From Bdellovibrionales bacterium (lineage in GTDB: Bacteria > Bdellovibrionota > Bdellovibrionia > Bdellovibrionales > UBA1609): a stretch of DNA of 64,000 bases. The translations under genes and the position numbers were made by a program. Below are positions 3 to 16,990 of this stretch, piece by piece. The DNA lies in NCBI GenBank assembly GCA_965205645.1, contig OZ242172.1:704122-768121 (forward strand). Direction: 5' to 3'. The notes beneath the pieces were generated by a model, which was not told the origin of the DNA, ran no database searches, and saw nothing but the letters and a program-made list of their open reading frames with translations. How positions within the stretch are numbered: the stretch's first letter is position 1; every line of letters starts with the position of its first letter.

Positions 3-1469
3 ATTCGTTTAGCTGAGCGGGGTTTTATTATTTCTGGGGATCATTATGATCGAACAAATAGTAGTAAGAACAAATTTAATAAAGCGGGTCGGAATGTTTT
101 TTTTCATAAGGGGAAATCTTATTTACCGGGTGAACGTTTAAGACAGCCTGGTTTAGCATTAGCATTAAGGCTTTTGAAAAAAGGGAAATCGGTATTTTAT
201 CGGGGTTTGATTGGAAGAGATATTGTTCGGGTTGTGCAAAAACATGGCGGGGTCATGCGCATGGAAGATTTGCACAAGTATCGGGTGCGTTGGCTTGATC
301 CGATCCGGTGGGATTTTGGTGGATATCAGTTTTACAGTATGCCTCTTCCGAGTTCTGGAGGAATTATTTTATTTAGGGCTACTCGTTTAATGGAACAGGT
401 GTTGGCACTTGGTAAACATAATTTGCAAAGTCGTGACATGGGAGCAGCGGAATCGCGGCGCCGCCGAGTCGGCGGGGACACTTTTGGTAAACATAATTTG
501 CAAAGTCGTGACATGCGTGCAAGGAATCGCGGCGCTGTAACCCCCCTTGGGGGGGTGGATGAGTGGCATTTATTAGCGGAGGTATTATCTGCTGCATTTC
601 GTCCGAGAGATCAGATGGGGGATTTGCCGGACGCAACTAAGTTATTAGAGCGTTGGTTATCGGTGAAGGATTTAGATCGTTTAGCTCGGAAAATTTCTTT
701 TCGGCGAATATTAAAATTACCTGCTTTGATCAGTAAACTTGATTTGCACAGTCGTGACATAGATGTACGGAATCGCGGCGCTGTAACCCTCCTTGGGGGG
801 GAGACGACACATTTTTCTATGATGGATGATAAGGGTCAGGTGGTATCTATGACGTTATCTTTGAACAGCAGTTATGGTTCTTATGTTGTGACGAATCGGT
901 ATGGCATTGTTTTGAACAATCAGATGGACGATTTTAATACGCATCCTGGTCGACCGAATCAATTTGGTTTGATTCAGGGTAAGAACAATTTAGTGCGTGC
1001 GCATCGTCGGCCTTTAAGTTCTATGAGTCCTACGATTGTGGAGAAGGATGGACGTGTGGTATTAGCGCTTGGTGCAGCAGGTGGTCCGATGATTATCAGT
1101 GCTGTATTTCAGGTATGTTATCGGTATTTGATTCAGGGTTTAGGTTTAGATCAGGCGGTACAGTTTCCTCGTGTACATCATCAATTTTTACCTCGTGTAT
1201 TGTATGTAGATAAGGATCGTTTTGCACCATTGGTATTAAAGCATTTAAAGAGGCGTGGGCACATTTTAGAGCAGAGGGATTTTATAGGGAGGGTGATGGC
1301 GGTTGGACGGCGGCGCCCTCCAAAAGGGAGTGATGGTGCCGCGATTGCGTCATCCTATGTTACTGTTTTGCAAGATAGTGACAATCGTGCAAGGAATCGC
1401 GTCGAAGTCACCCCCCTCTTGGAGGGGGCTTTTGATGCGCGTGGTGAAGGCGCAGTTGGTGGTTTCTGA
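3..1469 (+). CDS. ggt: gamma-glutamyltransferase, 5' end off-window, carrying three in-frame repeat insertion sites
   Basis: Frame 3 is open from base 3 (IRLAERGFIISGDHYD...) into the listed ORF 174..1469. GGT hallmarks are present: GGETTHFSMMD (nucleophile Thr), NNQMDDF, PLSSMSPT, GAAGGP. Confidence 0.9.
   Translation: MRLAERGFIISGDHYDRTNSSKNKFNKAGRNVFFHKGKSYLPGERLRQPGLALALRLLKKGKSVFYRGLIGRDIVRVVQKHGGVMRMEDLHKYRVRWLDPIRWDFGGYQFYSMPLPSSGGIILFRATRLMEQVLALGKHNLQSRDMGAAESRRRRVGGDTFGKHNLQSRDMRARNRGAVTPLGGVDEWHLLAEVLSAAFRPRDQMGDLPDATKLLERWLSVKDLDRLARKISFRRILKLPALISKLDLHSRDIDVRNRGAVTLLGGETTHFSMMDDKGQVVSMTLSLNSSYGSYVVTNRYGIVLNNQMDDFNTHPGRPNQFGLIQGKNNLVRAHRRPLSSMSPTIVEKDGRVVLALGAAGGPMIISAVFQVCYRYLIQGLGLDQAVQFPRVHHQFLPRVLYVDKDRFAPLVLKHLKRRGHILEQRDFIGRVMAVGRRRPPKGSDGAAIASSYVTVLQDSDNRARNRVEVTPLLEGAFDARGEGAVGGF
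411..557 (+). repeat. Two tandem units of the GC-rich modular hairpin repeat (head GGTAAACATAATTTGCAAAGTCGTGACATG at 411 and 486), inside ggt and in-frame
   Basis: The head is duplicated exactly. Unit 1 ends in the CCGCCG-AGT-CGGCGG hairpin and unit 2 in the CCCCCC-TT-GGGGGGG hairpin. Translated as GKHNLQSRDMGAAESRRRRVGGDTFGKHNLQSRDMRARNRGAVTPLGG. Confidence 0.9.
733..801 (+). repeat. Diverged single unit of the same repeat, in-frame in ggt, ending just before the catalytic Thr codons
   Basis: GTAAACTTGATTTGCACAGTCGTGACAT...GGAATCGCGGCGCTGTAACCCTCCTTGGGGGGG, translated as KLDLHSRDIDVRNRGAVTLLGG and followed by ETTH. Confidence 0.85.
1305..1428 (+). repeat. Composite repeat insertion near the ggt 3' end: an inverted partial unit plus a forward unit
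   Basis: Contains ...GCAAGATAGTGACAATCGTGCAAGGAATCGCGTCGAAGTCACCCCCCTCTTGGAGGGGG. It is preceded by a GC-rich segment with CCCTCCAAAAGGGAG. The insertion is absent from the ggt remnant at 6606..6713. Confidence 0.8.
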
Positions 1470-1471
1470 TT
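1428..1471 (+). repeat. Direct repeat A (att-like): the last 14 codons plus stop of ggt
   Basis: GCTTTTGATGCGCGTGGTGAAGGCGCAGTTGGTGGTTTCTGATT recurs at 5152..5195 and 6672..6715. Confidence 0.85.
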
Positions 1472-1648
1472 TTTTAATATTCTTTCAAAGAATCAGGTTA
1501 TTAATATTTCAGCGGATAAAATTTATTTTTCTTTATAAGTTTAGGTTCATGACACTTTAACAGGGTTGTTTTTAACTATTTTTGACAATAATCTATATAA
1601 GTCATCTTTTCTGTAATTGAACCTAAATTTAATAATATAACATCATAG

Positions 1649-2299
1649 TTAATCAGATAGTTCAAATAAAATAGCATTGAATGTTTGTGTAGTATTATTA
1701 TGCACAGGAATTGTTTTTACTTCTTCTAAGGAGATTATTTTATTTTCAATAGCTATTTTTAATTTTTGTTTTATCCATTCAGGAGGATAAGCACCACTTG
1801 AAATTAAGTTCTGAAAAGTTTTTCTAATATTAGTTATATATAATCCATTTTTCTCTAGTTTTTCTGAAGTATGTAAATTTTCGTAATGCAAAATTAATTG
1901 ATCGTTATTAGCAGTACGCCGGAAATTATCCGGAACAGTAATATGAAGTTTTACTGGACAATCCATTTTAAAATTCATCAAATAAAGTGCAGTTTCATAG
2001 GAAAACGTTCCTACTTGTTCACCGTTACGATTTCTAGCCCAAAGTTGAAAGAGAAAAAAATCTTTTTTTGAATCTGTTTGAATAAAATTAAGTTGATATA
2101 TTCCTCTTTTTACTCGTGACCAGTTTTCTCTTTTTAAATGATAAGAATGATTTCTAGAATCGATACCTGATTCTATTGCCTGTTGGCTAGTGAATAGACC
2201 TGATTGATTCTGAGCAATTTTTAATAAAGGATGATTAACTCTCAAAAATAGTTCCTTATTTGATATAATTATGTATTTTATGTTATATACTATCAACAA
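1649..2299 (-). CDS. AbiEi-like (type IV TA antitoxin-type) DNA-binding domain protein, no AbiEii partner nearby
   Basis: The N-terminal pattern GLFTSQQAIESGIDSRNHSYHLKRENWSRVKRGIYQL resembles the AbiEi_4-type wHTH. Judged by eye only. Confidence 0.45.
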   Translation of the reverse strand: MLIVYNIKYIIISNKELFLRVNHPLLKIAQNQSGLFTSQQAIESGIDSRNHSYHLKRENWSRVKRGIYQLNFIQTDSKKDFFLFQLWARNRNGEQVGTFSYETALYLMNFKMDCPVKLHITVPDNFRRTANNDQLILHYENLHTSEKLEKNGLYITNIRKTFQNLISSGAYPPEWIKQKLKIAIENKIISLEEVKTIPVHNNTTQTFNAILFELSD

Positions 2300-2399
2300 T
2301 AATTATAAAATAACATAATTTTTATGTATTTTATATATTTTTTTCTTGTTTTTTGCAATATATACTGGTAATTTCTATCGAAAAAGAGGGATGTCTATA

Positions 2400-3464
2400 A
2401 TGATAAAAAGCATAAAAATTCAAAATTATAAGCTTTTTAAGTCCTTTGACCTTCAGAATATTCCTCAAATTCTGTTAGTTGGTGGAAAAAATAATAGTGG
2501 AAAAACTAGCATTTTAGAAGCTGCATTTATGTCTTTGGATTGTGTGAATCCCAATATGTTTATCAGGCATCTTGGATGGAGAGGCTTGAATACTATTTCT
2601 AATGATGTAGAATCTTTATTTGGCCCTGTATATCATAATTTTGATTTAAACCAGCCTATAATTATTCAATATACTCTTAATTCAGCACAAAAAAAATTAA
2701 TATACAAGTTTCTGCCATTTGTTACACAACCTATTATCACTCGTAACGGAAGCAGTATTGAAATTAACGAGAAAGTTAGCAGATTTGGGGGGATAGAAAT
2801 TTCTTATTGGCTAGGAAGAGAACAATATCATAAGGCTTTGTTAAAACATGAAATAAAGGGACTTAATTTATCATCTGTGAATCAAGTGCTGAAATACAAT
2901 GAAGGTGTAAAAGCTGTGTTTCTTGCTTCAACTTTTTCAGATCATCAATCGGAAAATGCTCGTAGATATGGCGAGTTGGATAGAATAAATAATACAGCTA
3001 ATATTTTAACTGCATTAAAAATTTTAGAATCCAAACTTAATTCTTTGAGTGTGATACCAATGGGCAATAGATCAATGATATACGGAGATACGGGTCTCGG
3101 AAAAAAAATTCCCTTGGCACTGATGGGTCAAGGGATTAACAAACTTGTATCTATTCTTTTAGCAATTTCCAATGCTAATAATGGAGTTGTTTTTATAGAT
3201 GAGCTTGAAAATGGATTCCATCATTCTGTTCTATCCGATATATGGAAAGTTATTTCACACCATGCTATGTTTAATAATACACAAGTGATAGCTACTACAC
3301 ATAGTAGGGAGCTTATTCTAGGAGCAGTAGCAGGTATACCTGATAGGATTAGAGATAAATTTAAATATATGAGGATAGAAAGAAAAGGAAATGCATTTAA
3401 AACAAAACATTATGATTTTAATACTTTGAGTGCAGCTTTAGATTCTGAGTTAGAAATTCGGTAG
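2400..3464 (+). CDS. ABC/SMC-type AAA ATPase (AAA_15/AAA_21-like, OLD/AriA-like ATPase module)
   Basis: Walker A GGKNNSGKTS, signature-like MGQGINKL, Walker B VVFIDELENGFH, H-loop ATTHS. Start chosen at the ATG at 2400, 10 nt after GAGGG. The longest ORF starts at 2346. Confidence 0.75.
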   Translation: MIKSIKIQNYKLFKSFDLQNIPQILLVGGKNNSGKTSILEAAFMSLDCVNPNMFIRHLGWRGLNTISNDVESLFGPVYHNFDLNQPIIIQYTLNSAQKKLIYKFLPFVTQPIITRNGSSIEINEKVSRFGGIEISYWLGREQYHKALLKHEIKGLNLSSVNQVLKYNEGVKAVFLASTFSDHQSENARRYGELDRINNTANILTALKILESKLNSLSVIPMGNRSMIYGDTGLGKKIPLALMGQGINKLVSILLAISNANNGVVFIDELENGFHHSVLSDIWKVISHHAMFNNTQVIATTHSRELILGAVAGIPDRIRDKFKYMRIERKGNAFKTKHYDFNTLSAALDSELEIR

Positions 3465-3469
3465 ATTTA

Positions 3470-4123
3470 GTGAATCAGAAAAACAGATTTAGCATAAAAA
3501 TTACAGAAACAAAACTCCTTCTTGTAGAAGGAAAGGATGAAGAGTTTTTTTTTAAAACTTTCTTAAAAAAGAAAGAGATTTGTAATATTCAAATTATTTC
3601 TAGTGGTGGAAAAGATAAATTTAAGAACAAATTTCCAGCAATTAAAAACACTCCTGGCTTTGATGAAGTAACTTCATTGGCTGTCATCCATGATGCAGAT
3701 ACAAACGCTCAAGGGGCATTTCAAAGTATTTGTTCTGTATTAAAGAACAATAGCGTGGATTATCCTAAACAAATTTCATCATTTACTACTTCAAATTCCC
3801 TTAGAGTTGGGGTTTTTATTATTCCGGATGGAGGAAATCAAGGAAAGTTAGAATCTTTATGCTTATCTACAGTTGAGTCGGACAGTATTATAGAATGTAT
3901 TGATTCTTTTATGAGTTGTATAAAGCAGCAGTCACAGCTTGATATAAATAGATATAAAGAACCAAAAGATATTCATAAAGCTAGATGTAGGGCATTTCTC
4001 TCAGCTATGGAAGAGGATATTCCATCTTTGGGATTAGCTGCTGAAAAGGGTTATTGGAATTTAGATTCAGATAAATTGAATCCTATGTTGAATTTTTTAC
4101 AGGAATTAAATCGCAAAGAGTAA
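3470..4123 (+). CDS. Small Toprim-like partner protein (DUF4435/DUF3226-like)
   Basis: GTG start 6 nt after the ATPase stop. Contains LLLVEGKDEEFF (conserved Glu) and AVIHDADTN (DxD), the two Toprim acidic motifs, plus IIPDGGNQGKLESL. Confidence 0.55.
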   Translation: MNQKNRFSIKITETKLLLVEGKDEEFFFKTFLKKKEICNIQIISSGGKDKFKNKFPAIKNTPGFDEVTSLAVIHDADTNAQGAFQSICSVLKNNSVDYPKQISSFTTSNSLRVGVFIIPDGGNQGKLESLCLSTVESDSIIECIDSFMSCIKQQSQLDINRYKEPKDIHKARCRAFLSAMEEDIPSLGLAAEKGYWNLDSDKLNPMLNFLQELNRKE

Positions 4124-4148
4124 ATAATATATTAAAAAAAGCACTAAT

Positions 4149-5159
4149 ATGGAAATACCAAAGTTTTTATTATATGGTGAGACTGATCCAAAAACTCAAG
4201 AGAGAATACAGAAAACTCTTCCATGGAGAAGTTGGGATCAAGTCAGTGAAAAGGGAAAAGAAATTGCATTTCAGCAATTGATTAATGAAAATGTATTTCT
4301 ATACAAATCAGATCTTGTAGAAAATACGATAAAACGTTTGAATAATAAATTTTTAAGAAAACTATATGGAAAAAATTTACATTATTGTATGTCAGAATAT
4401 CTTGATGATTATCAAACAGCAGCAATGGGTGATTTTCGTGAAATTTTTACAACAGGAAAATCTGATGTGGTTTTTTATATGTTAAGTATATTTGCTGAAG
4501 GATTTATTAATCAGAATTATTTACGTCAAGCAAAAGAATCAAATAATAATGTAGATAGAAAAGAATATATAGAACAAGCTTTTATTCCATTTAATAAATT
4601 ACAGAACTGTTTGAATCATATTTTTGGACAATTTCATGTCAATCAACAGCTTACTTGGAGTGGTTTTATACCTCGTCAAGATGAAAGAATTTTAGATCAA
4701 ATCTATATTCCTACAATTAAATGTCTTTCCGATCCGAAATGGAGTTTAGTAAATAATGATTTAAGTAATATGTTTCAAGACTATAGAAATGGTAACTATC
4801 GGGACACTATTACTAAAGCTCATAATGTTTTACAAAGATTTCTTCAAATTTTTTTAAACAAGAGAAGTAAAAATGCTAAAGGAGAGTTAGGTAAGTTATT
4901 TTCGGAAGCTAAAAATAAAGGTGTTATATCAAATAATATTTTTATCATGAAAATCATTGAAGGTATTCAGAGCTTTGTATCTTCTGAAAGAGCAACTAAA
5001 AGCACAGCCAAACCTGCATTTAAAAATGTTACATCTGCAGATGCTTTGCTAGTAATGAATGCAGTTATGGTTTTTTTACAATACTGTTTAGAAGCAGATG
5101 CAACTGCATTGAAAGTATCTCCTGCGATTCATAAAGAGAGAGAACGGATGGCCTTTTGA
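4149..5159 (+). CDS. Hypothetical protein, third gene of the ATPase/Toprim cassette. Helical C-terminus with weak HEPN/Abi_C-like flavour.
   Basis: 336-aa ORF 25 nt downstream of the Toprim-like gene. YRDTITKAH fits Rx6H only loosely. Its stop codon (5157..5159) lies inside direct repeat B. Confidence 0.4.
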   Translation: MEIPKFLLYGETDPKTQERIQKTLPWRSWDQVSEKGKEIAFQQLINENVFLYKSDLVENTIKRLNNKFLRKLYGKNLHYCMSEYLDDYQTAAMGDFREIFTTGKSDVVFYMLSIFAEGFINQNYLRQAKESNNNVDRKEYIEQAFIPFNKLQNCLNHIFGQFHVNQQLTWSGFIPRQDERILDQIYIPTIKCLSDPKWSLVNNDLSNMFQDYRNGNYRDTITKAHNVLQRFLQIFLNKRSKNAKGELGKLFSEAKNKGVISNNIFIMKIIEGIQSFVSSERATKSTAKPAFKNVTSADALLVMNAVMVFLQYCLEADATALKVSPAIHKERERMAF

Positions 5160-5195
5160 TGCACGTGGTGAAGGCGCCGTTGGTGGTTTCTGATT
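5152..5195 (+). repeat. Direct repeat B (att-like copy of the ggt 3' end)
   Basis: CCTTTTGATGCACGTGGTGAAGGCGCCGTTGGTGGTTTCTGATT has 3 mismatches to copy A by hand alignment. Confidence 0.85.
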
Positions 5196-5264
5196 GTTTA
5201 TAGTTGTCTATTTAGTATTATTAAAAAATAGATTTGCGGTGGATGTATATTGTACAAACAGAAA

Positions 5265-6413
5265 TTACTTGATATTTTTCAGCCAGTCAGCAGCTGGCCA
5301 GATATGACATCCTGAGGTATGTAGCCTTTGTCGGCTACAAGATCTAACTAGCTGTATTTTTTTTACAGGATCAGGTATATCTTTAGTAAATAAATCAAAA
5401 TGAGATGTGAGTTTTTCATCTTTCCATTTAGTCTCTATCATTTGAAATGGCTTATTGTCTTTTGTGATTAAGAAATCTATTTCTTTTTTATCTTTATTTT
5501 TTAAGTAATAAAGTTGTCTTTTTTCTCCATAGCAGTCTTCTTTAAAGTGGTTATTTTTTAGTAAGGCGCAGGCAACAAGGTTTTCGAATCGCGCGCCTTT
5601 ATCTGAAACTTGAGCTATATCGTAAAAATAATACTTAGGCTGTTTGCGGATAGATTTTCTGATGTTTTTATAATAGGGTTGGATTTTAAAAATAAAATAA
5701 AATCCTTCTAATAGGTTCAGCATTTTTTTCACTGTTTTACCATCGCATTGTAGGATTTTTGATAAATTTTCGTATTGAATAGCGCTACCAACGGATGTTT
5801 TTAGTAACTCTAATAAGGTTTCTAATTGAGAAATTCTTTGGTATTTATCTAGCTCCAGCATATCTTCTTTTAGAATGGCTGAAGTGTGCGTGTTTGCCCA
5901 TCTTCTATAAAACTGCTTTGATCCTTTAAGATATGGTTCTGGAAATCCTCCAATTTCTAGCAGTCGGGTGAGTATTTGCTCTGGGTCTGCTTTTTTATGT
6001 ATTTGGCAAATTTCTTTTACGTCTAAAGGATGTAGGCGAAAAGGGAAAAAGCAGCCAGCTAAGGAATCTCCTGTTCTTTTATAGGCTTCAAGTCTGGCGC
6101 TACCTGTTACTATAATACCTTGTTTAAGTTCTGTTTTTTCATATAAAGCTTTTAGCCATTGTTTCCAGTTTTTTTTAATATGTAGTTCATCAAAAACTAG
6201 GTACTTGCAATAAGGATTCCATTCTTGTCGTTCTACCATTAGGCGGTCTTTGGCATCAAAGTAGTTAAAATAATCAAATTTTACTGAGGATGGGTGTAGG
6301 TGTTTTGAAAGCATTGTTTTTCCGGATTGTCGAGGACCGGTTATAATTAAAATCTTTTCTTTTAAATCTTTTTTTAAAAAGGGCTCTAGGTAGCGAGGTT
6401 TGTATTTGTTCAT
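5265..6413 (-). CDS. AAA ATPase of the AAA_14/DUF4143 type
   Basis: Walker A ITGPRQSGKTML and Walker B-like YLVFDELH. A C-terminal EIDFLI...IETKW module is typical of DUF4143 proteins. Paralog at 41867..43030. Confidence 0.75.
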   Translation of the reverse strand: MNKYKPRYLEPFLKKDLKEKILIITGPRQSGKTMLSKHLHPSSVKFDYFNYFDAKDRLMVERQEWNPYCKYLVFDELHIKKNWKQWLKALYEKTELKQGIIVTGSARLEAYKRTGDSLAGCFFPFRLHPLDVKEICQIHKKADPEQILTRLLEIGGFPEPYLKGSKQFYRRWANTHTSAILKEDMLELDKYQRISQLETLLELLKTSVGSAIQYENLSKILQCDGKTVKKMLNLLEGFYFIFKIQPYYKNIRKSIRKQPKYYFYDIAQVSDKGARFENLVACALLKNNHFKEDCYGEKRQLYYLKNKDKKEIDFLITKDNKPFQMIETKWKDEKLTSHFDLFTKDIPDPVKKIQLVRSCSRQRLHTSGCHIWPAADWLKNIK

Positions 6414-6449
6414 AGTATATAAGATATATTATCCGAGGGGGTATGTCTA

Positions 6450-6511
6450 GACTATTTCGGATATAACTACGAAAAAGTACGGACTATTTCGGAGATATCT
6501 CCGAAATAGTC
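6450..6511. promoter_or_regulatory. Putative operator: perfect 30-bp palindrome plus an extra half-site upstream of the DUF4143 ATPase gene
   Basis: GACTATTTCGGAGATATCTCCGAAATAGTC at 6482..6511 is its own reverse complement. A third half-site GACTATTTCGGATAT lies at 6450..6464. The site is 37-98 nt upstream of the ATG at 6413. Confidence 0.5.
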
Positions 6512-6605
6512 TTTCTCATTAGTGGGTATGGAAAGTGGAATATATTTGTTATTTTCATATATTGCTATTTAGATTCATGAGAGCAGGTGTGATGTGGTTA
6601 TATGC

Positions 6606-6713
6606 CAGAGCGGATTAGAGAATACTCTGGGAATAAGGTTTAGTTTGCATGTGGTGGCAATTTTAGAAGGGGCTTTTGATGCGCGTGGTGAGGGTGCAGT
6701 CAGTAGTTTATAA
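6606..6713 (+). pseudogene. ggt: Displaced, diverged 3' remnant of ggt without the repeat
   Basis: Reads ...LHVVAILEGAFDARGEGAVSSL* in frame. The live gene has ...GRVMAV[38-aa repeat insert]LEGAFDARGEGAVGGF*. There is no upstream ORF. Confidence 0.65.
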
Positions 6714-6715
6714 TT
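6672..6715 (+). repeat. Direct repeat C (att-like)
   Basis: The first 20 nt are identical to copy A. There are 7 mismatches in the remaining 24 by hand alignment. Confidence 0.8.
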
Positions 6716-6725
6716 GGATAAAGTG

Positions 6726-8003
6726 TTATCTATATATCACATGAGGATGAGATACTGTGCTAGGTGTACTTTTCTCCCAGTCATCTAAATCTACCGCATC
6801 GTCACATTCATGGAATACAAAAAATTGATCTTTATCAGACAATTCCCCCGTACTAGATATATGATCCGGTAATGAATAATATTCACAGTCAGTGCCTTCT
6901 TCTCCTCCGACATCTGGATCTCCGCGGCTGCCATTGGATTCCACAAATTTATTAAATTCTTCTTCTGTATTCCATTCTCTTACAACTAAATGGATACGAT
7001 GTATCACCTCATGCGCATTATCCAGGCATGACCAGGTAAAATACGGATATCCTTTAAATTGTGTGCCTGGGTGATTTGGCAATGGATCTGTTTCATATAG
7101 TTTAGGTAAGTTATCTAAATTAAAATCTTCTATATCTTCATAGTAATTAGCTACGACAAATGAAGGGCCACTGATTCTTAAACTGCCTCTTGTTGGATCT
7201 CCACCATCGTAAAAGCTTTCAATGCTTGGTATTTCATAAGTTTCAATGTGGCCATCTCTTTCCGTACTAGTGACTAGTGTTAGTGGAATTCCTAAATCAT
7301 TTCTAGCGTTCCAGTTAACGCGGCCTAGGCCTCCGAGGCATTGTTCCAGGCTTTCTCCCCAGGAACCATCTGATTGATCTTCTCCTGAAACTGCGTAATC
7401 ACCAATACAACAATTAGCTAAGTCATCATTTCTATCACTTAGATCGTATCCACATAAATTTTCTATTTCAGCAGAGCATGCTCCTCGTCCTGGTCCATCA
7501 GTGCAATATCTATCTTCTGTTTCTGCATTATCTCCAGTACCTATTGTGCGTTCATCTTTATGAATAATTCTCGGTCCATAACCAGCATTTTGATTAAAGT
7601 GCCAGGGTACTTGAAATCCCAGGTAGTCACACATACCAGGCGGCACATTATATTCAATAGGGGTTGGATGTCCCCATAGATCCCCTTCTATTTTTTCTAG
7701 TTGGCAAAATATATCTTCACTGGATTCTTGATCAATCGGGATTTTACAGTCTGTACCAGGCCCTGCATCTAGCTCATACAGTGCATGTTGTAAAAAGCTA
7801 TGTCCTGCATAGTTGTCTCTGGCTAAGCGAATATAAAAGAATCTATCGTTTGGAATAGATCCTTCATTCTCATCCCATGAAGGTAGTTGAGAAAATGAAG
7901 AGAAGTCACTTGATCCAAAAACATTGAGCTTGCTACAACCCATGAAGAAGGATAAAGCCAAGCCTGTTACGTATAATGAAATCAATAGAACTTTCAGACG
8001 CAT
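6726..8003 (-). CDS. Acidic Cys-rich putative lipoprotein, unknown function
   Basis: Signal peptide with lipobox (LSFFMGC). 425-aa intact ORF rich in D/E/C/G. Confidence 0.6.
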   Translation of the reverse strand: MRLKVLLISLYVTGLALSFFMGCSKLNVFGSSDFSSFSQLPSWDENEGSIPNDRFFYIRLARDNYAGHSFLQHALYELDAGPGTDCKIPIDQESSEDIFCQLEKIEGDLWGHPTPIEYNVPPGMCDYLGFQVPWHFNQNAGYGPRIIHKDERTIGTGDNAETEDRYCTDGPGRGACSAEIENLCGYDLSDRNDDLANCCIGDYAVSGEDQSDGSWGESLEQCLGGLGRVNWNARNDLGIPLTLVTSTERDGHIETYEIPSIESFYDGGDPTRGSLRISGPSFVVANYYEDIEDFNLDNLPKLYETDPLPNHPGTQFKGYPYFTWSCLDNAHEVIHRIHLVVREWNTEEEFNKFVESNGSRGDPDVGGEEGTDCEYYSLPDHISSTGELSDKDQFFVFHECDDAVDLDDWEKSTPSTVSHPHVIYR

Positions 8004-8550: not shown

Positions 8551-8880
8551 TTATTTTAGATGTTGTTTATTTTTATGTATTTGATCTAAATGACGATCTA
8601 ATTGATTTATTTTGTGAATATTAGCATGGGAGGGGTAGGTATACGTTCTTTCTTGTAGTATCTTGTTTTCTATTGCTTCTTCGGTTGAAAAATTGTTGTT
8701 TAATTCTTTCATCCGCTGCGAGTGAATTGGATAATCGAGTGTGTTTTGTTTGTGTATAGCATTATGAACAGCTATTGGATTCAGGAAGGCCATTGAACAC
8801 TTTATATTTGTCAAAGAATTGCTGTAAGCGTAAGATGAAAATAATAATAATAATATATAAAATATCCAAATTTTTAACAT
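8551..8880 (-). CDS. Small secreted protein, family member 1 of 4 between rplS and trmD
   Basis: Signal peptide MLKIWIFYILLLLFSSYAYS. Shares YTYPSHANIHKINQLDRHLDQI with the other members. Confidence 0.6.
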   Translation of the reverse strand: MLKIWIFYILLLLFSSYAYSNSLTNIKCSMAFLNPIAVHNAIHKQNTLDYPIHSQRMKELNNNFSTEEAIENKILQERTYTYPSHANIHKINQLDRHLDQIHKNKQHLK

Positions 8881-9159
8881 AACAATTCCTTTTACTTCAG
8901 AACATTTTTCTTAATAATATCAGATGTTTAAATCCTTAAACCCAAGTAGGTATTAAGTTAAGTGAGGATATTTATCATACGAGTTGTCTTTATGCAACTT
9001 TAAAAAAGGGGTGGTGTAAATATTTACATTGCCAGTGTAAAAAAACAGCTATTTGCCTGGAAGCTCACGTTACTTAAGTACACATGATTGGCAAAATTAT
9101 GACATGGGAGTAGCAGATTCATAGCGCAGTTATTGATATCGTCTATCATTAGTTGTGTA

Positions 9160-9717
9160 TTATTTCATGTAATATTCTTTATATGAATTCATTTGTTGGT
9201 CTAAATGATCGATTTGTTTTTGCAATTTTTGAGATACAAAGAGTGCATGTTCATAGATTGTCTCTTCTAATTTCATTTTTAATTGTGCAATATGAATCAG
9301 CTGATTCAGCTTTGCATTGTATTTTGTGTGTGCAATAAATATTATCTTCGACGTTTCGTTTAATAGCTTCGGATTTTCTGCATGTTCTGTCACATTCTCT
9401 TCCAGCTGCTGGTCATGTTTCTGTTTATCTAGATAAGGCACAATGAGTTCTGTATGAAGAAGATCATTTACTTGATCTATTACATTGGAATATTGTTGAT
9501 TAGTTTCATCTACTTTTTTTGATAATTGTTTTAAGTCTATACCAGCTTCTTCTAGTGGTGTTCTATCTATGCCTTTAAAAGAAAATCGGCATTTTGTCCA
9601 AGAATTGCTATATGCATTCTGTGAAAGTAACAATGCACAAAATATTCCTATTATAGCTATGCTCAAACTCTCACAGCTATAATAGATAGAATGATAACAG
9701 TTTTTCCTACTCTGCAT
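9160..9717 (-). CDS. Secreted coiled-coil-like protein, family member 2
   Basis: Its N-terminus MQSRKNCYHSIYYS... is identical to the 9874 ORF, followed by a signal peptide. Confidence 0.6.
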   Translation of the reverse strand: MQSRKNCYHSIYYSCESLSIAIIGIFCALLLSQNAYSNSWTKCRFSFKGIDRTPLEEAGIDLKQLSKKVDETNQQYSNVIDQVNDLLHTELIVPYLDKQKHDQQLEENVTEHAENPKLLNETSKIIFIAHTKYNAKLNQLIHIAQLKMKLEETIYEHALFVSQKLQKQIDHLDQQMNSYKEYYMK

Positions 9718-9835
9718 GACATTCTCTTTAACAATTAGAGATTCTTTTCATTCATTCAAGCGATCGTACATCACTGAATGGGTACTCTCTTATCATAAGT
9801 GGCATAGTTGTGCAAATTTAAAGAGAGATTAATGT
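9655..9835 (-). repeat. Conserved leader plus 5' CDS segment of the paralog cassette (copy 1)
   Basis: About 180 bp are nearly identical to 10303..10488. The segment includes TTATCATAAGTGGCATAGTTGTGCAAATTTAAAGAGAGATT. Confidence 0.8.
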
Positions 9836-9873
9836 TTTGACTATAATGTTCTTATATTTTTTTTGAAGTTGTT

Positions 9874-10365
9874 TCATCTGTTAAATAGAATCCATAAGTT
9901 ATTTTGATGGATGTGGTTTAAGGTGTTAATTAGTTGTCTTGTTTGTTCGTTGTCTTTTCGATTTGATCTTTTCAGTTCCTGTAGTATGCTTCTTTTCATA
10001 GTTTCTCCTTCAGCTATTATTTGATCCAGTTTGTGATCCCATGGATTTATTTGTTCAGCGTTACTAGGGTATGTAGATTTTAATTTCTGTAGCAGATATG
10101 TTATTTTGTTTCTAAGGACGATAGATCTATCGTGAATGTGTTCTATATTTATTGGCTTTTGTGGTGTGTGAGATGGTTGGATTGCACTCTCTTTTGTTTC
10201 ATCGGTAGGCGCTGGATTGTCAAATGATTGTTGGCATTTATTTTCAGAAGTACCGTAAGTAGGGTGCGCAAATAACAATGCACAAAATATTCCTATTATA
10301 GTCGTTATGCTGAAAATCCTATAGCTATAATAGATAGAATGATAACAGTTTTTCCTACTCTGCAT
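9874..10365 (-). CDS. Secreted protein, family member 3
   Basis: STYPSNAEQINPWDHKLDQIIAEGETMKRSILQELKR...NNLWILFNR parallels the 10543 ORF. Confidence 0.6.
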   Translation of the reverse strand: MQSRKNCYHSIYYSYRIFSITTIIGIFCALLFAHPTYGTSENKCQQSFDNPAPTDETKESAIQPSHTPQKPINIEHIHDRSIVLRNKITYLLQKLKSTYPSNAEQINPWDHKLDQIIAEGETMKRSILQELKRSNRKDNEQTRQLINTLNHIHQNNLWILFNR

Positions 10366-10488
10366 GATGTTCTCTTTAACAATTAGAGATTCTTTTCACT
10401 CATTCATTCAAGCAATCGTGCATCGCTGAATGGGTACTCTCTTATCATAAGTAGCATAGTTGTGCAAATTTAAAGAGAGATTCATGTT
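10303..10488 (-). repeat. Conserved leader plus 5' CDS segment of the paralog cassette (copy 2)
   Basis: See 9655..9835. Degenerate versions of the TTATCATA..TGCAA core are also upstream of the 8551 and 10543 ORFs. Confidence 0.8.
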
Positions 10489-10542
10489 TTTTCTATGACT
10501 CTGAAGAATAAATCAATCTTCTGTTTTTCTTTTTTTGTATAG

Positions 10543-11055
10543 TTACTCAGATGGATTTTTCTTTGATAAGTTAATTTGTTGATCCTGGTATCCTTCCATG
10601 GATACTTTTAACCTGTTAGATAGAATCCATAAGTTATTTTGGTTGATATAATTAAAAATGTAATTTAATTTTACTGTTTGTTGGTTGTTATTTACATTTA
10701 TTCTTTTCAATTCTTGTATTATTGTGGTCATCTGTGTTTTTCCTTCAGCTATTATCTGATGAAGCTTATGATCTAATTGCTCTATTTTTTTAACGTCATT
10801 AGGATGTGTAGATTGTAATTTTTGTAGCAGATGTTCCGCTTCTTCCTTAAGAGCGGCAGATCGGATACTATATTGTTCTATGTTTATTGGCTGTTGCGCC
10901 GTGTGTTCAGTTTGGGCTGCACCTTTTTTTGTTTCATTACTGATAGGTGCTGAATTATTAAATGGTTGCTTGCATTTGTCTCCGGTAAAACCACCAGAAT
11001 CACCGTAAGCAGGATACGCAAATAGCAATACACAAAATATCCATATTATAGTCAT
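10543..11055 (-). CDS. Secreted protein, family member 4
   Basis: Signal peptide MTIIWIFCVLLFAYPAYG. Contains STHPNDVKKIEQLDHKLHQIIAEGKTQMTTIIQELKR...NNLWILSNR. Confidence 0.6.
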   Translation of the reverse strand: MTIIWIFCVLLFAYPAYGDSGGFTGDKCKQPFNNSAPISNETKKGAAQTEHTAQQPINIEQYSIRSAALKEEAEHLLQKLQSTHPNDVKKIEQLDHKLHQIIAEGKTQMTTIIQELKRINVNNNQQTVKLNYIFNYINQNNLWILSNRLKVSMEGYQDQQINLSKKNPSE

Positions 11056-16483: not shown

Positions 16484-16990
16484 CAACCCCCCCCTCAAAA
16501 GGGGTAACTTCGCCGCGATTCCTTGCACGCATGTCACAATTTTGCTTATAAAGTTCGTCAAGTAAGTAAGTGTCCGCCCCCCAAAGGGGGTAACTTCGCC
16601 GCGATTCCTTGCACGCATGTCACAATTTTGCTTATAAAGTTCGTCAAGTAAGTAAGTGTCCGCCCCCCAAAGGGGGTAACTTCGCCGCGATTCCTTGCAC
16701 GCATGTCACAATTTTGCTTATAAAGTTCGTCAAGTAAGTAAGTGTCCGCCCCCAAAGGGGGTAACTTCGCCGCGATTCCTTGCACGCATGTCACAATTTT
16801 TCACATAAAGTTTGCCAAGTAAGTAAGTGTCCGCCCCCCAAAGGGGGTAACTTCGCCGCGATTCCTTGCACGCATGTCACAATTTTTCACATAAAGTTTG
16901 CCAAGTAAGTAAGTGTCCGCCCCCCAAAGGGGGTAACTTCGCCGCGATTCTGCTGTACGCATGTCACTCCTTGTAAATCATGTTTATCAG
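16484..16990 (-). repeat. Tandem array of 6 units of the hairpin repeat, period 86 bp (one unit is 85 bp), co-oriented with secG
   Basis: The TGTCCGCC landmark falls at 16571, 16657, 16743, 16828 and 16914. Monomer: GTCCGCCCCCCAAAGGGGGTAACTTCGCCGCGATTCCTTGCACGCATGTCACAATTTTGCTTATAAAGTTCGTCAAGTAAGTAAGT. The last two units switch to a TTTTTCACATAAAGTTTGCCAAG linker. Confidence 0.92.

Follow-up and report, generated by a model that had tools for sequence, protein, structure and literature searches.

Within a stretch of 64,000 nucleotides from a Bdellovibrionales bacterium (contig OZ242172.1), referred to here as the window, three open reading frames (ORFs) follow one another on the same strand at 2400-3464, 3470-4123 and 4149-5159. 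They are predicted to encode an ABC-type ATPase, a Toprim-like protein of the family DUF3226 and a helical protein of 336 amino acids (aa), and a gene for an AbiEi-like regulator lies on the opposite strand, divergent from the ATPase gene. An initial annotation of this locus had read the three ORFs as a compact anti-phage cassette in which the 336-aa protein is appended to an ATPase and Toprim pair. The ORFs and motifs that it quoted are all found, and the gap of 25 nucleotides (nt) between the DUF3226 gene and the 336-aa gene is as it stated; the gap between the ATPase and DUF3226 genes is 5 nt (3465-3469) rather than the 6 nt claimed. With a probability of about 0.7, we take this region to be a small islet of defence genes containing two candidate anti-phage modules side by side, and not a single three-gene system. 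The fraction of guanine and cytosine (GC) is 0.26-0.32 in the islet and 0.36-0.46 in its flanks. Comparisons within the lineage refer to Bdellovibrionales-like genomes, in which eight loci with the pair were inspected; individual loci are denoted by L and a number.

The ATPase and DUF3226 pair

The first gene (2400..3464, + strand) encodes an ABC/SMC-type ATPase of 354 aa, which we presume to be a sensor and scaffold. Its ORF opens at 2346, and an AGAGGG ribosome-binding site together with the homologues favour the ATG at 2400 as the start. The protein carries GKNNSGKT (Walker A), VVFIDELENGFH (Walker B) and ATTHS (H-loop), and across 60 homologues the core residues of these three motifs are at least 90% conserved; residues of a signature-like motif are conserved in the same homologues. 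In Pfam it matches AAA_15 (E-value 1.5e-21) and AAA_21 (3e-19), and its N-terminus weakly matches RecF, Rad50 and SMC_N. The top match among the PADLOC models is AbiLi (PDLC02336, 1.3e-53) over the full length, and residues 1-354 align to positions 1-383 of the 383 in PDC-M38A (PDLC04611, 1.2e-39), the model for the first protein of a two-gene candidate system. Weaker and partial PADLOC matches are to AriA, GajA and PtuA; the AriA models score 1e-23 and 1.6e-22, both below AbiLi and PDC-M38A, and the best of them spans only residues 68-306. A sequence search of the PDB found no AriA chain.

The second gene (3470..4123, + strand) starts with GTG, giving an N-terminus that agrees with those of its homologues, and encodes a protein of 217 aa with a predicted OLD-type Toprim fold, presumably the nuclease effector. 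Residues 15-213 match positions 2-206 of the 208 in the Pfam profile DUF3226 (PF11536) with an E-value of 1.8e-35 and 123.1 bits (cutoff 27), and the protein also passes the cutoff of OLD-like_TOPRIM (2.6e-5, 25.1 bits, cutoff 23.2). In PADLOC it matches PDC-M38B (PDLC04624, 1.1e-13; residues 4-213 on profile positions 4-217 of 220), whereas AriB (1.2e-4, residues 15-80) and mad4 are matched through the N-terminus only. The motifs VEGKDEE and HDAD contribute to a set of conserved acidic positions: among 33 family members E20, D75 and E128 are invariant and D77 is either D or E. The AlphaFold (AF2) model is of high confidence, with a predicted local distance difference test score (pLDDT) of 94, and with Foldseek it is closest to the Toprim regions at the C-termini of the Xanthomonas and Burkholderia OLD proteins (6njx, 6njw, 6njv and 6nk8; E-values 3.5e-5 to 3e-4, probability 1.0 for each), followed by retron Eco2 and then by the PARIS chain 8ux9_A (E-value 5e-3). 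The profile of the DUF3226 family also retrieves PDB 2p62 (PH0156), a structural-genomics protein. The earlier assignment of this protein to Toprim is therefore borne out by both hidden Markov model (HMM) and fold searches, and these sequence and model data support its being a Toprim-class putative nuclease.

To place the two genes together, we retrieved 80 metagenomic loci with the DUF3226 profile, 77 of which include upstream sequence. The ATPase gene is immediately upstream of DUF3226 in all 77; in 68 of them the reading frames share 1, 4 or 16 nt, and in 75 they are no more than 40 nt apart. By this gene order, the ATPase and DUF3226 protein make up a two-gene module of the 'split OLD' kind that is obligate and translationally coupled, and which corresponds to the PADLOC candidate system PDC-M38. 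The initial suggestion of a split-OLD theme thus holds, given the matches to AAA_15/AAA_21, to AbiLi, PDC-M38A and AriA, and to DUF3226 and OLD-like_TOPRIM, together with the fold. The further suggestion of a new variant was overstated, since Pfam already has the family, and PADLOC the candidate system, to which the pair belongs. The proteins had also been described as markedly short, and they are indeed smaller than AriA and AriB, yet their sizes are normal for the family (median 360 aa for the ATPase, about 200-225 aa for DUF3226 homologues) and they are not truncations.

The genes around the pair in the metagenomic loci are otherwise heterogeneous. They include PglZ (twice), BrxL and Eco57I/MmeI-type methylases, of the BREX type, as well as ResIII helicases, and these BREX and ResIII neighbours are a defence-island signature. 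In the lineage, the outer flanks of the pair differ in all eight loci, which is not what a core housekeeping operon, the case that the initial annotation had set against its own proposal, would present. Two of these loci have features of their own. The DUF3226 gene of L124 (3937-4498) is broken into small ORFs. In L123 (2381-3925) a gene for a 514-aa reverse transcriptase (RVT_1) lies directly 3' of DUF3226 on the same strand; this recalls the retron-linked class 3 of the OLD family, but a group II intron is equally possible.

The 336-aa protein and the AbiEi-like regulator

The third gene (4149..5159, + strand) encodes what, from sequence comparison and a predicted model, we take for a candidate abortive-infection protein of the HEPN type that stands alone. 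Its model is all-helical (pLDDT 80) and consists of an N-terminal helical domain and a C-terminal four-helix HEPN-like domain. When it was searched against the PDB with Foldseek, nothing reached significance, and high probability was obtained only for four HEPN proteins (0.75-0.94), at E-values of about 1-3 and with template modelling (TM) scores of 0.63-0.67 normalised to the target. Contrary to the initial description of a protein with no clear motif, it has an invariant ERAxxSTAKP, which is the HEPN motif Rx6H with H replaced by K, and an invariant TKAH. In the window protein these correspond to R281-x6-K288, at the place where HEPN proteins have Rx6H, and to the invariant H225.

A profile search of 1.8 billion representatives returned 258 relatives, and these allow the motif to be followed beyond the close homologues. 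Distant relatives carry ER-x6-HPK, the HEPN Rx6H, whereas the clade of the window protein has an invariant ER-x6-KP at the same position. R281 is kept in 87 of the 88 representatives that cover the site, and of 87 representatives 69 have H at position 288 and 18 have K. His225 occurs only with K288 (15 cases, none with H288), although this covariation is probably a single clade-level event and not statistical proof of compensation. The pattern suggests, at the level of sequence, that the active site is rearranged rather than dead. Seven of 20 family members, all distant ones, match the PADLOC model PDC-S32 (best E-value 2.5e-10), and they are homologous to the window clade with E-values below 1e-40; distant members also give faint signals for HEPN, Abi_C and AbiJ_NTD4 in Pfam. 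The window protein itself matches no HEPN model of Pfam or PADLOC and does not match PDC-S32. Some homologues carry precomputed labels of 'Abi_C (weak)' (PF14355), whereas a Pfam scan of 31 close homologues gave no Abi_C or HEPN match at E-values up to 0.1. Sub-threshold matches of homologues to Exonuc_X-T_C, T4_RIIA1 and Hypoth_Ymh were taken as noise or as a faint HEPN signal. A search of the PDB with the family profile gave nothing meaningful, a fold search of viral structures found no match for the model, PHROGs gave no informative match and NCBIfam gave only a sub-threshold match to STM4504/CBY_0614.

The distribution of this gene is wide and is not that of the pair. There are more than 130 homologues, with 55-68% identity in metagenome-assembled genomes of Bdellovibrionales and 43-51% in Patescibacteria, Nitrospira, Alpha- and Gammaproteobacteria, Desulfosarcina and others. 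Of 38 genomic loci, the pair adjoins the homologue in only two, the close relatives L001 and L002, and elsewhere the neighbours vary in size, strand and family, such that no Pfam family recurs in more than two of 105 neighbours. Homologues without the pair occur in more than 30 genomes, the same lineage included, where L125 and L126 have one within other defence islands (type II restriction-modification and AbiTii; OLD/GajA-like, SLFN_AlbA_2 and HsdR). Conversely, the 336-aa gene is absent from all 80 loci fetched for the pair (77 with upstream room), and in the lineage five of the eight loci (L040, L041, L122, L123 and L124) have the pair without it. In one genome the pair is at 0.22 Mb and the 336-aa gene at 1.99 Mb, and in L002 the homologue is split into two ORFs (6001-6970) beside an intact pair. 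The 336-aa gene is therefore, on these comparisons of gene content, not a conserved third component and only sometimes adjoins the pair; the reading as a cassette of three genes is not supported, as each module is also found without the other, including within the lineage. A homologue in L027 (5995-6942) is likewise split into two ORFs.

The gene that does accompany the pair in the lineage is the one on the other side. The AbiEi-family winged-helix regulator (1649..2245, - strand, 198 aa) has its most probable start codon in the TTG at 2245 and not at 2299, its homologues beginning with MRVNHPLL. It matches Pfam AbiEi_4 (1.7e-7, 31.7 bits, cutoff 25) and, over nearly its full length, the PADLOC model AbiEi (PDLC02228, 1.3e-37). 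Its close homologues number 40 in total, all of them at least 53% identical, and 19 of the 22 on contigs longer than 50 kb appear to share the contig with a DUF3226 homologue. In all eight lineage loci, in spite of their differing flanks, it lies next to the ATPase gene in divergent orientation. The initial annotation had treated it as a neighbour only; judged by gene order, it is a lineage-conserved partner of the pair, and the module always carries it in this lineage. Outside the lineage it is absent from 77 of 77 pairs. An AbiEii nucleotidyltransferase was not found next to it, its only neighbours being ggt and the ATPase gene, and the same is true of seven related loci.

The divergent region between the regulator and ATPase genes contains two putative operator boxes of identical sequence, TTATGTATTTTAT, which has no other exact copy in the 64 kb. 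Box 1 (2269..2281, + strand) overlaps a -10-like hexamer of the predicted promoter of the AbiEi-like gene, and box 2 (2322..2334, + strand), 53 bp from it, lies within the predicted promoter of the ATPase operon; both promoter predictions are consensus matches only. Two boxes with a spacing of 51-53 bp are present in all eight lineage loci, while the spacer is otherwise variable, as is its length up to the ATPase start, and the spacing of the boxes is close to five helical turns. For AbiEi, published work describes binding to paired repeats in the promoter of its own gene, which it represses (PMC3985639).

Islet boundaries and neighbouring sequences

The four genes are bounded by a direct repeat of 45-51 nt that derives from the 3' end of ggt, of which the window contains only three copies, with none expected by chance. 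Copy 1 (1426..1476, + strand) is the ggt 3' end itself, encodes the C-terminus ...AFDARGEGAVGGF* and marks the left boundary of islet 1; copy 2 (5150..5200, + strand), 92% identical to copy 1, separates islet 1 from islet 2; and copy 3 (6670..6720, + strand), 80% identical to copy 1, is the right boundary of islet 2. Islet 1 (3.7 kb) comprises the AbiEi-like, ATPase, DUF3226 and HEPN-like genes. The last 22 or so residues of the 336-aa protein are a non-homologous tail, because its ORF reads through into copy 2. Islet 2 (1.5 kb) has a single gene (5265..6413, - strand) for an AAA_14 and DUF4143 ATPase of 382 aa, which matches the PADLOC single-gene candidate PDC-S01 (6e-54). Just 5' of its start, at 6449-6512, there is a 30-nt near-perfect palindrome, which is also present as a 32-nt tandem duplication and could serve as an operator or as a terminator in both directions.

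These repeat boundaries suggest that DNA was inserted more than once, in succession, at the 3' end of ggt. The ggt-derived repeat is absent from 124 of 124 fetched loci and the related cassettes, which are located elsewhere, lack it, so integration at ggt would be specific to this genome. We also considered whether the three copies are part of a dispersed GC-rich repeat that follows on in ggt; this was rejected because a 24-nt core is found only at the three islet boundaries, while the dispersed repeat occurs elsewhere as well. That dispersed repeat is present as three to four in-frame copies of about 70 nt within the ggt ORF itself (174-1469, gamma-glutamyltranspeptidase), at 409-446, 487-555, 733-801 and 1357-1425. 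It has the core CGTGCAAGGAATCGCGGCG... and a terminal CCCCCC..GGGGG palindrome, and adds repeated segments of peptide (…NLQSRDMRARNRGAVTPLGG…), resembling the in-frame palindromic elements of Rickettsia. The same core recurs at 16491-16967 in 5.5 tandem copies of an 86-nt unit (96% matches), between a secG-like and a bioB-like ORF.

Other repetitive or paralogous sequences were seen in the window and at a related locus. Between rplS and trmD, at 8551-11055 (- strand), are four paralogous small ORFs of 109, 185, 163 and 170 aa, with signal-peptide-like N-termini, a segment MQSRKNCYHSIYYS common to two of them and motifs such as NQNNLWIL common to several; from their sequences they look like a lineage-specific family of secreted proteins. 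In L039 a 633-aa ORF 3' of the cassette contains ten tandem units of 114 nt (8835-10160), and this segment is flanked by a direct repeat of 151 nt (7693-7843 and 10873-11023).

Interpretation and relation to known systems

We propose that the islet houses an ATPase and Toprim module, placed in this lineage under an AbiEi-type regulator, next to a separate HEPN-like gene. For the pair, PARIS is the likely mechanistic template by analogy: in that system AriB is held by a hexamer of AriA until a phage protein is sensed in an ATP-dependent step, and the freed AriB dimerises and cleaves tRNA-Lys (PMC11464382). In the same manner, an oligomer of the ATPase would keep the Toprim nuclease inactive, would sense a phage product in an ATP-dependent step and then free the nuclease, which would cut tRNA (or DNA) and so abort the infection. 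The AbiEi-like protein may bind both boxes and repress both divergent promoters, and the HEPN-like protein could act independently in abortive infection, as an effector of the RNase type whose active site is rearranged.

Several observations weigh against this interpretation. A full-text literature search returned no paper on 'DUF3226' or 'PDC-M38', and the role in defence is argued by analogy; DUF3226 is likewise not in the domain list of a published survey of AAA15/21 defence systems, so that this branch is best described as catalogued but unstudied. Compared with AriA the ATPase lacks about 100-150 aa, and compared with AriB the Toprim protein lacks about 80 aa, so that the architecture of the scaffold may differ. 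Nor are all such pairs PARIS-like, as the AbiLi of F. nucleatum failed to neutralise its toxic AbiLii (PMC3985639). The HEPN assignment draws on weak fold scores (E-values of about 1) and on homology at the level of the family, and the window protein is without the catalytic His of Rx6H. The islets have no integrase, and no comparable repeats flank the cassette in the seven related loci. Finally, the 336-aa gene is co-directional with the pair and 25 nt downstream, and it is beside the pair in at least three of the inspected lineage loci, so that a local functional link is conceivable.

This last point speaks for the arrangement first proposed, a true three-component system with the 336-aa protein as an integral subunit, for example a second effector or a specificity factor. 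There is no terminator-like site between the genes, the gene order is the same in L039, L002 and L001 and is suggested for three further contigs, and all four genes share one repeat-bounded islet. We nevertheless judge an integral third subunit unlikely, as the gene is missing from all 77 metagenomic pairs and from five of eight in the lineage, has more than 30 homologues with unrelated neighbours, stands alone in other defence islands of the lineage, is remote from the pair in one genome and is broken in L002 where the pair is not. In a more elaborate version the minimal pair would have been rewired, in this lineage, into one unit of four genes, in which an AbiEi-type repressor controls the operon and a single ATPase sensor governs both the Toprim nuclease and, as a second effector, a HEPN RNase whose catalytic His has shifted from the Rx6H loop (now Rx6K) to a neighbouring helix (TKAH). 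If true, this would be a dual-nuclease, PARIS-like system, and we hold it to be quite unlikely.

The strict association with the AbiEi-like gene in this lineage raises another explanation, that the unit is an AbiE-like toxin-antitoxin system in which the AbiEi-like protein is the antitoxin for the nuclease or for the ATPase, besides or in place of a regulatory role, and which mainly stabilises the islet instead of acting against phage. AbiEi is the antitoxin of the type IV AbiE system and also autoregulates, and the related AbiLii of F. nucleatum is toxic alone (PMC3985639); the regulator encoded here, moreover, aligns with an AbiEi model of full length. Against this, the pair does not need an AbiEi-like gene, given that 77 of 77 pairs outside the lineage do without one, and the genes are divergent, unlike the abiEi-abiEii operon, with no AbiEii nucleotidyltransferase; an antitoxin role thus appears improbable to us. 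It is harder still to see the pair as a housekeeping unit of DNA repair or recombination, with a RecF/Rad50-like ATPase and a Toprim nuclease unrelated to phage defence. The weak N-terminal matches to RecF, Rad50 and SMC_N and the many housekeeping genes in the flanks would fit, but the sporadic distribution, the differing positions in related genomes, the gene decay in L124, the low-GC repeat-bounded islet, the BREX and restriction-modification neighbours and the top family matches, every one of them to a defence ATPase, make it very unlikely.

On our preferred reading of two modules side by side, the pair is of interest for its size. To our knowledge, ABC-ATPase and Toprim systems (OLD, Gabija, PARIS, AbiL and MADS3-4) are a major class of phage sensors whose mechanism has been worked out only for PARIS. 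At about 360 and 210 aa, the DUF3226 pair is the smallest version that we have seen here, and it may offer a convenient minimal model in which to ask how general the principle of a scaffold that holds a nuclease and a trigger that releases it is, and what the nuclease cuts. The AbiEi-type gene and its boxes would provide a testable example of a regulator from an antitoxin family recruited to a different defence module. If, however, the pair is ordinary, what the locus offers is a further catalogued candidate within a defence islet.

Set beside known systems, the closest correspondence is with PDC-M38, since the two proteins align with its A and B models from end to end and their genes adjoin in the order A-B; PDC-M38 is a two-gene computational candidate, and the pair described here adds a lineage-specific AbiEi-like gene and putative operator boxes. 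PARIS (AriA and AriB, class 4 of the OLD family) likewise splits its ABC ATPase and its Toprim protein between two genes of an operon. However, its AriB is a DUF4435 (PF14491) Toprim, to which the DUF3226 protein has no match at E-values up to 1, its proteins are of about 55 and 35 kDa as against 354 and 217 aa, and the match of the ATPase to AriA is partial. AbiL of Lactococcus (AbiLi and AbiLii), whose AbiLi is the best match of the ATPase, is also an ABC ATPase with a Toprim/OLD-like partner (PMC13064643), but the 217-aa protein matches no AbiLii model at E-values up to 1 and is of another Toprim family. The OLD family as a whole (P2 Old in class 1, GajA in class 2 and the retron-associated class 3) has the same two modules. 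Class 1 and GajA fuse them, whereas here they are two ORFs parted by a stop codon; Gabija in addition has the UvrD-like helicase GajB, and the islet has no helicase gene; and, in contrast to class 3, there is no reverse transcriptase in the window.

For the two genes that flank the pair, the relevant comparisons are of a different kind. With the type IV toxin-antitoxin system AbiE the locus has in common an AbiEi-family protein and paired repeats in the promoter region, but it has no AbiEii, its gene is divergent from the partner operon, and its two boxes are direct repeats with a spacing of about 52 bp where those of AbiE are inverted. The 336-aa protein recalls the HEPN Abi proteins (Abi_C/AbiJ-like) and PDC-S32 by its predicted helical N-domain and four-helix HEPN-like C-domain, and differs in that the window clade has K for the motif His and gains the invariant His225. 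The kind of system that combines an ABC ATPase with a Toprim protein includes PARIS, AbiL, RloAB and MADS3-4 (PMC13064643, PMC11464382). The pair belongs to this kind, but it is neither PARIS nor AbiL, nor is it a fusion protein like OLD or that of Gabija.

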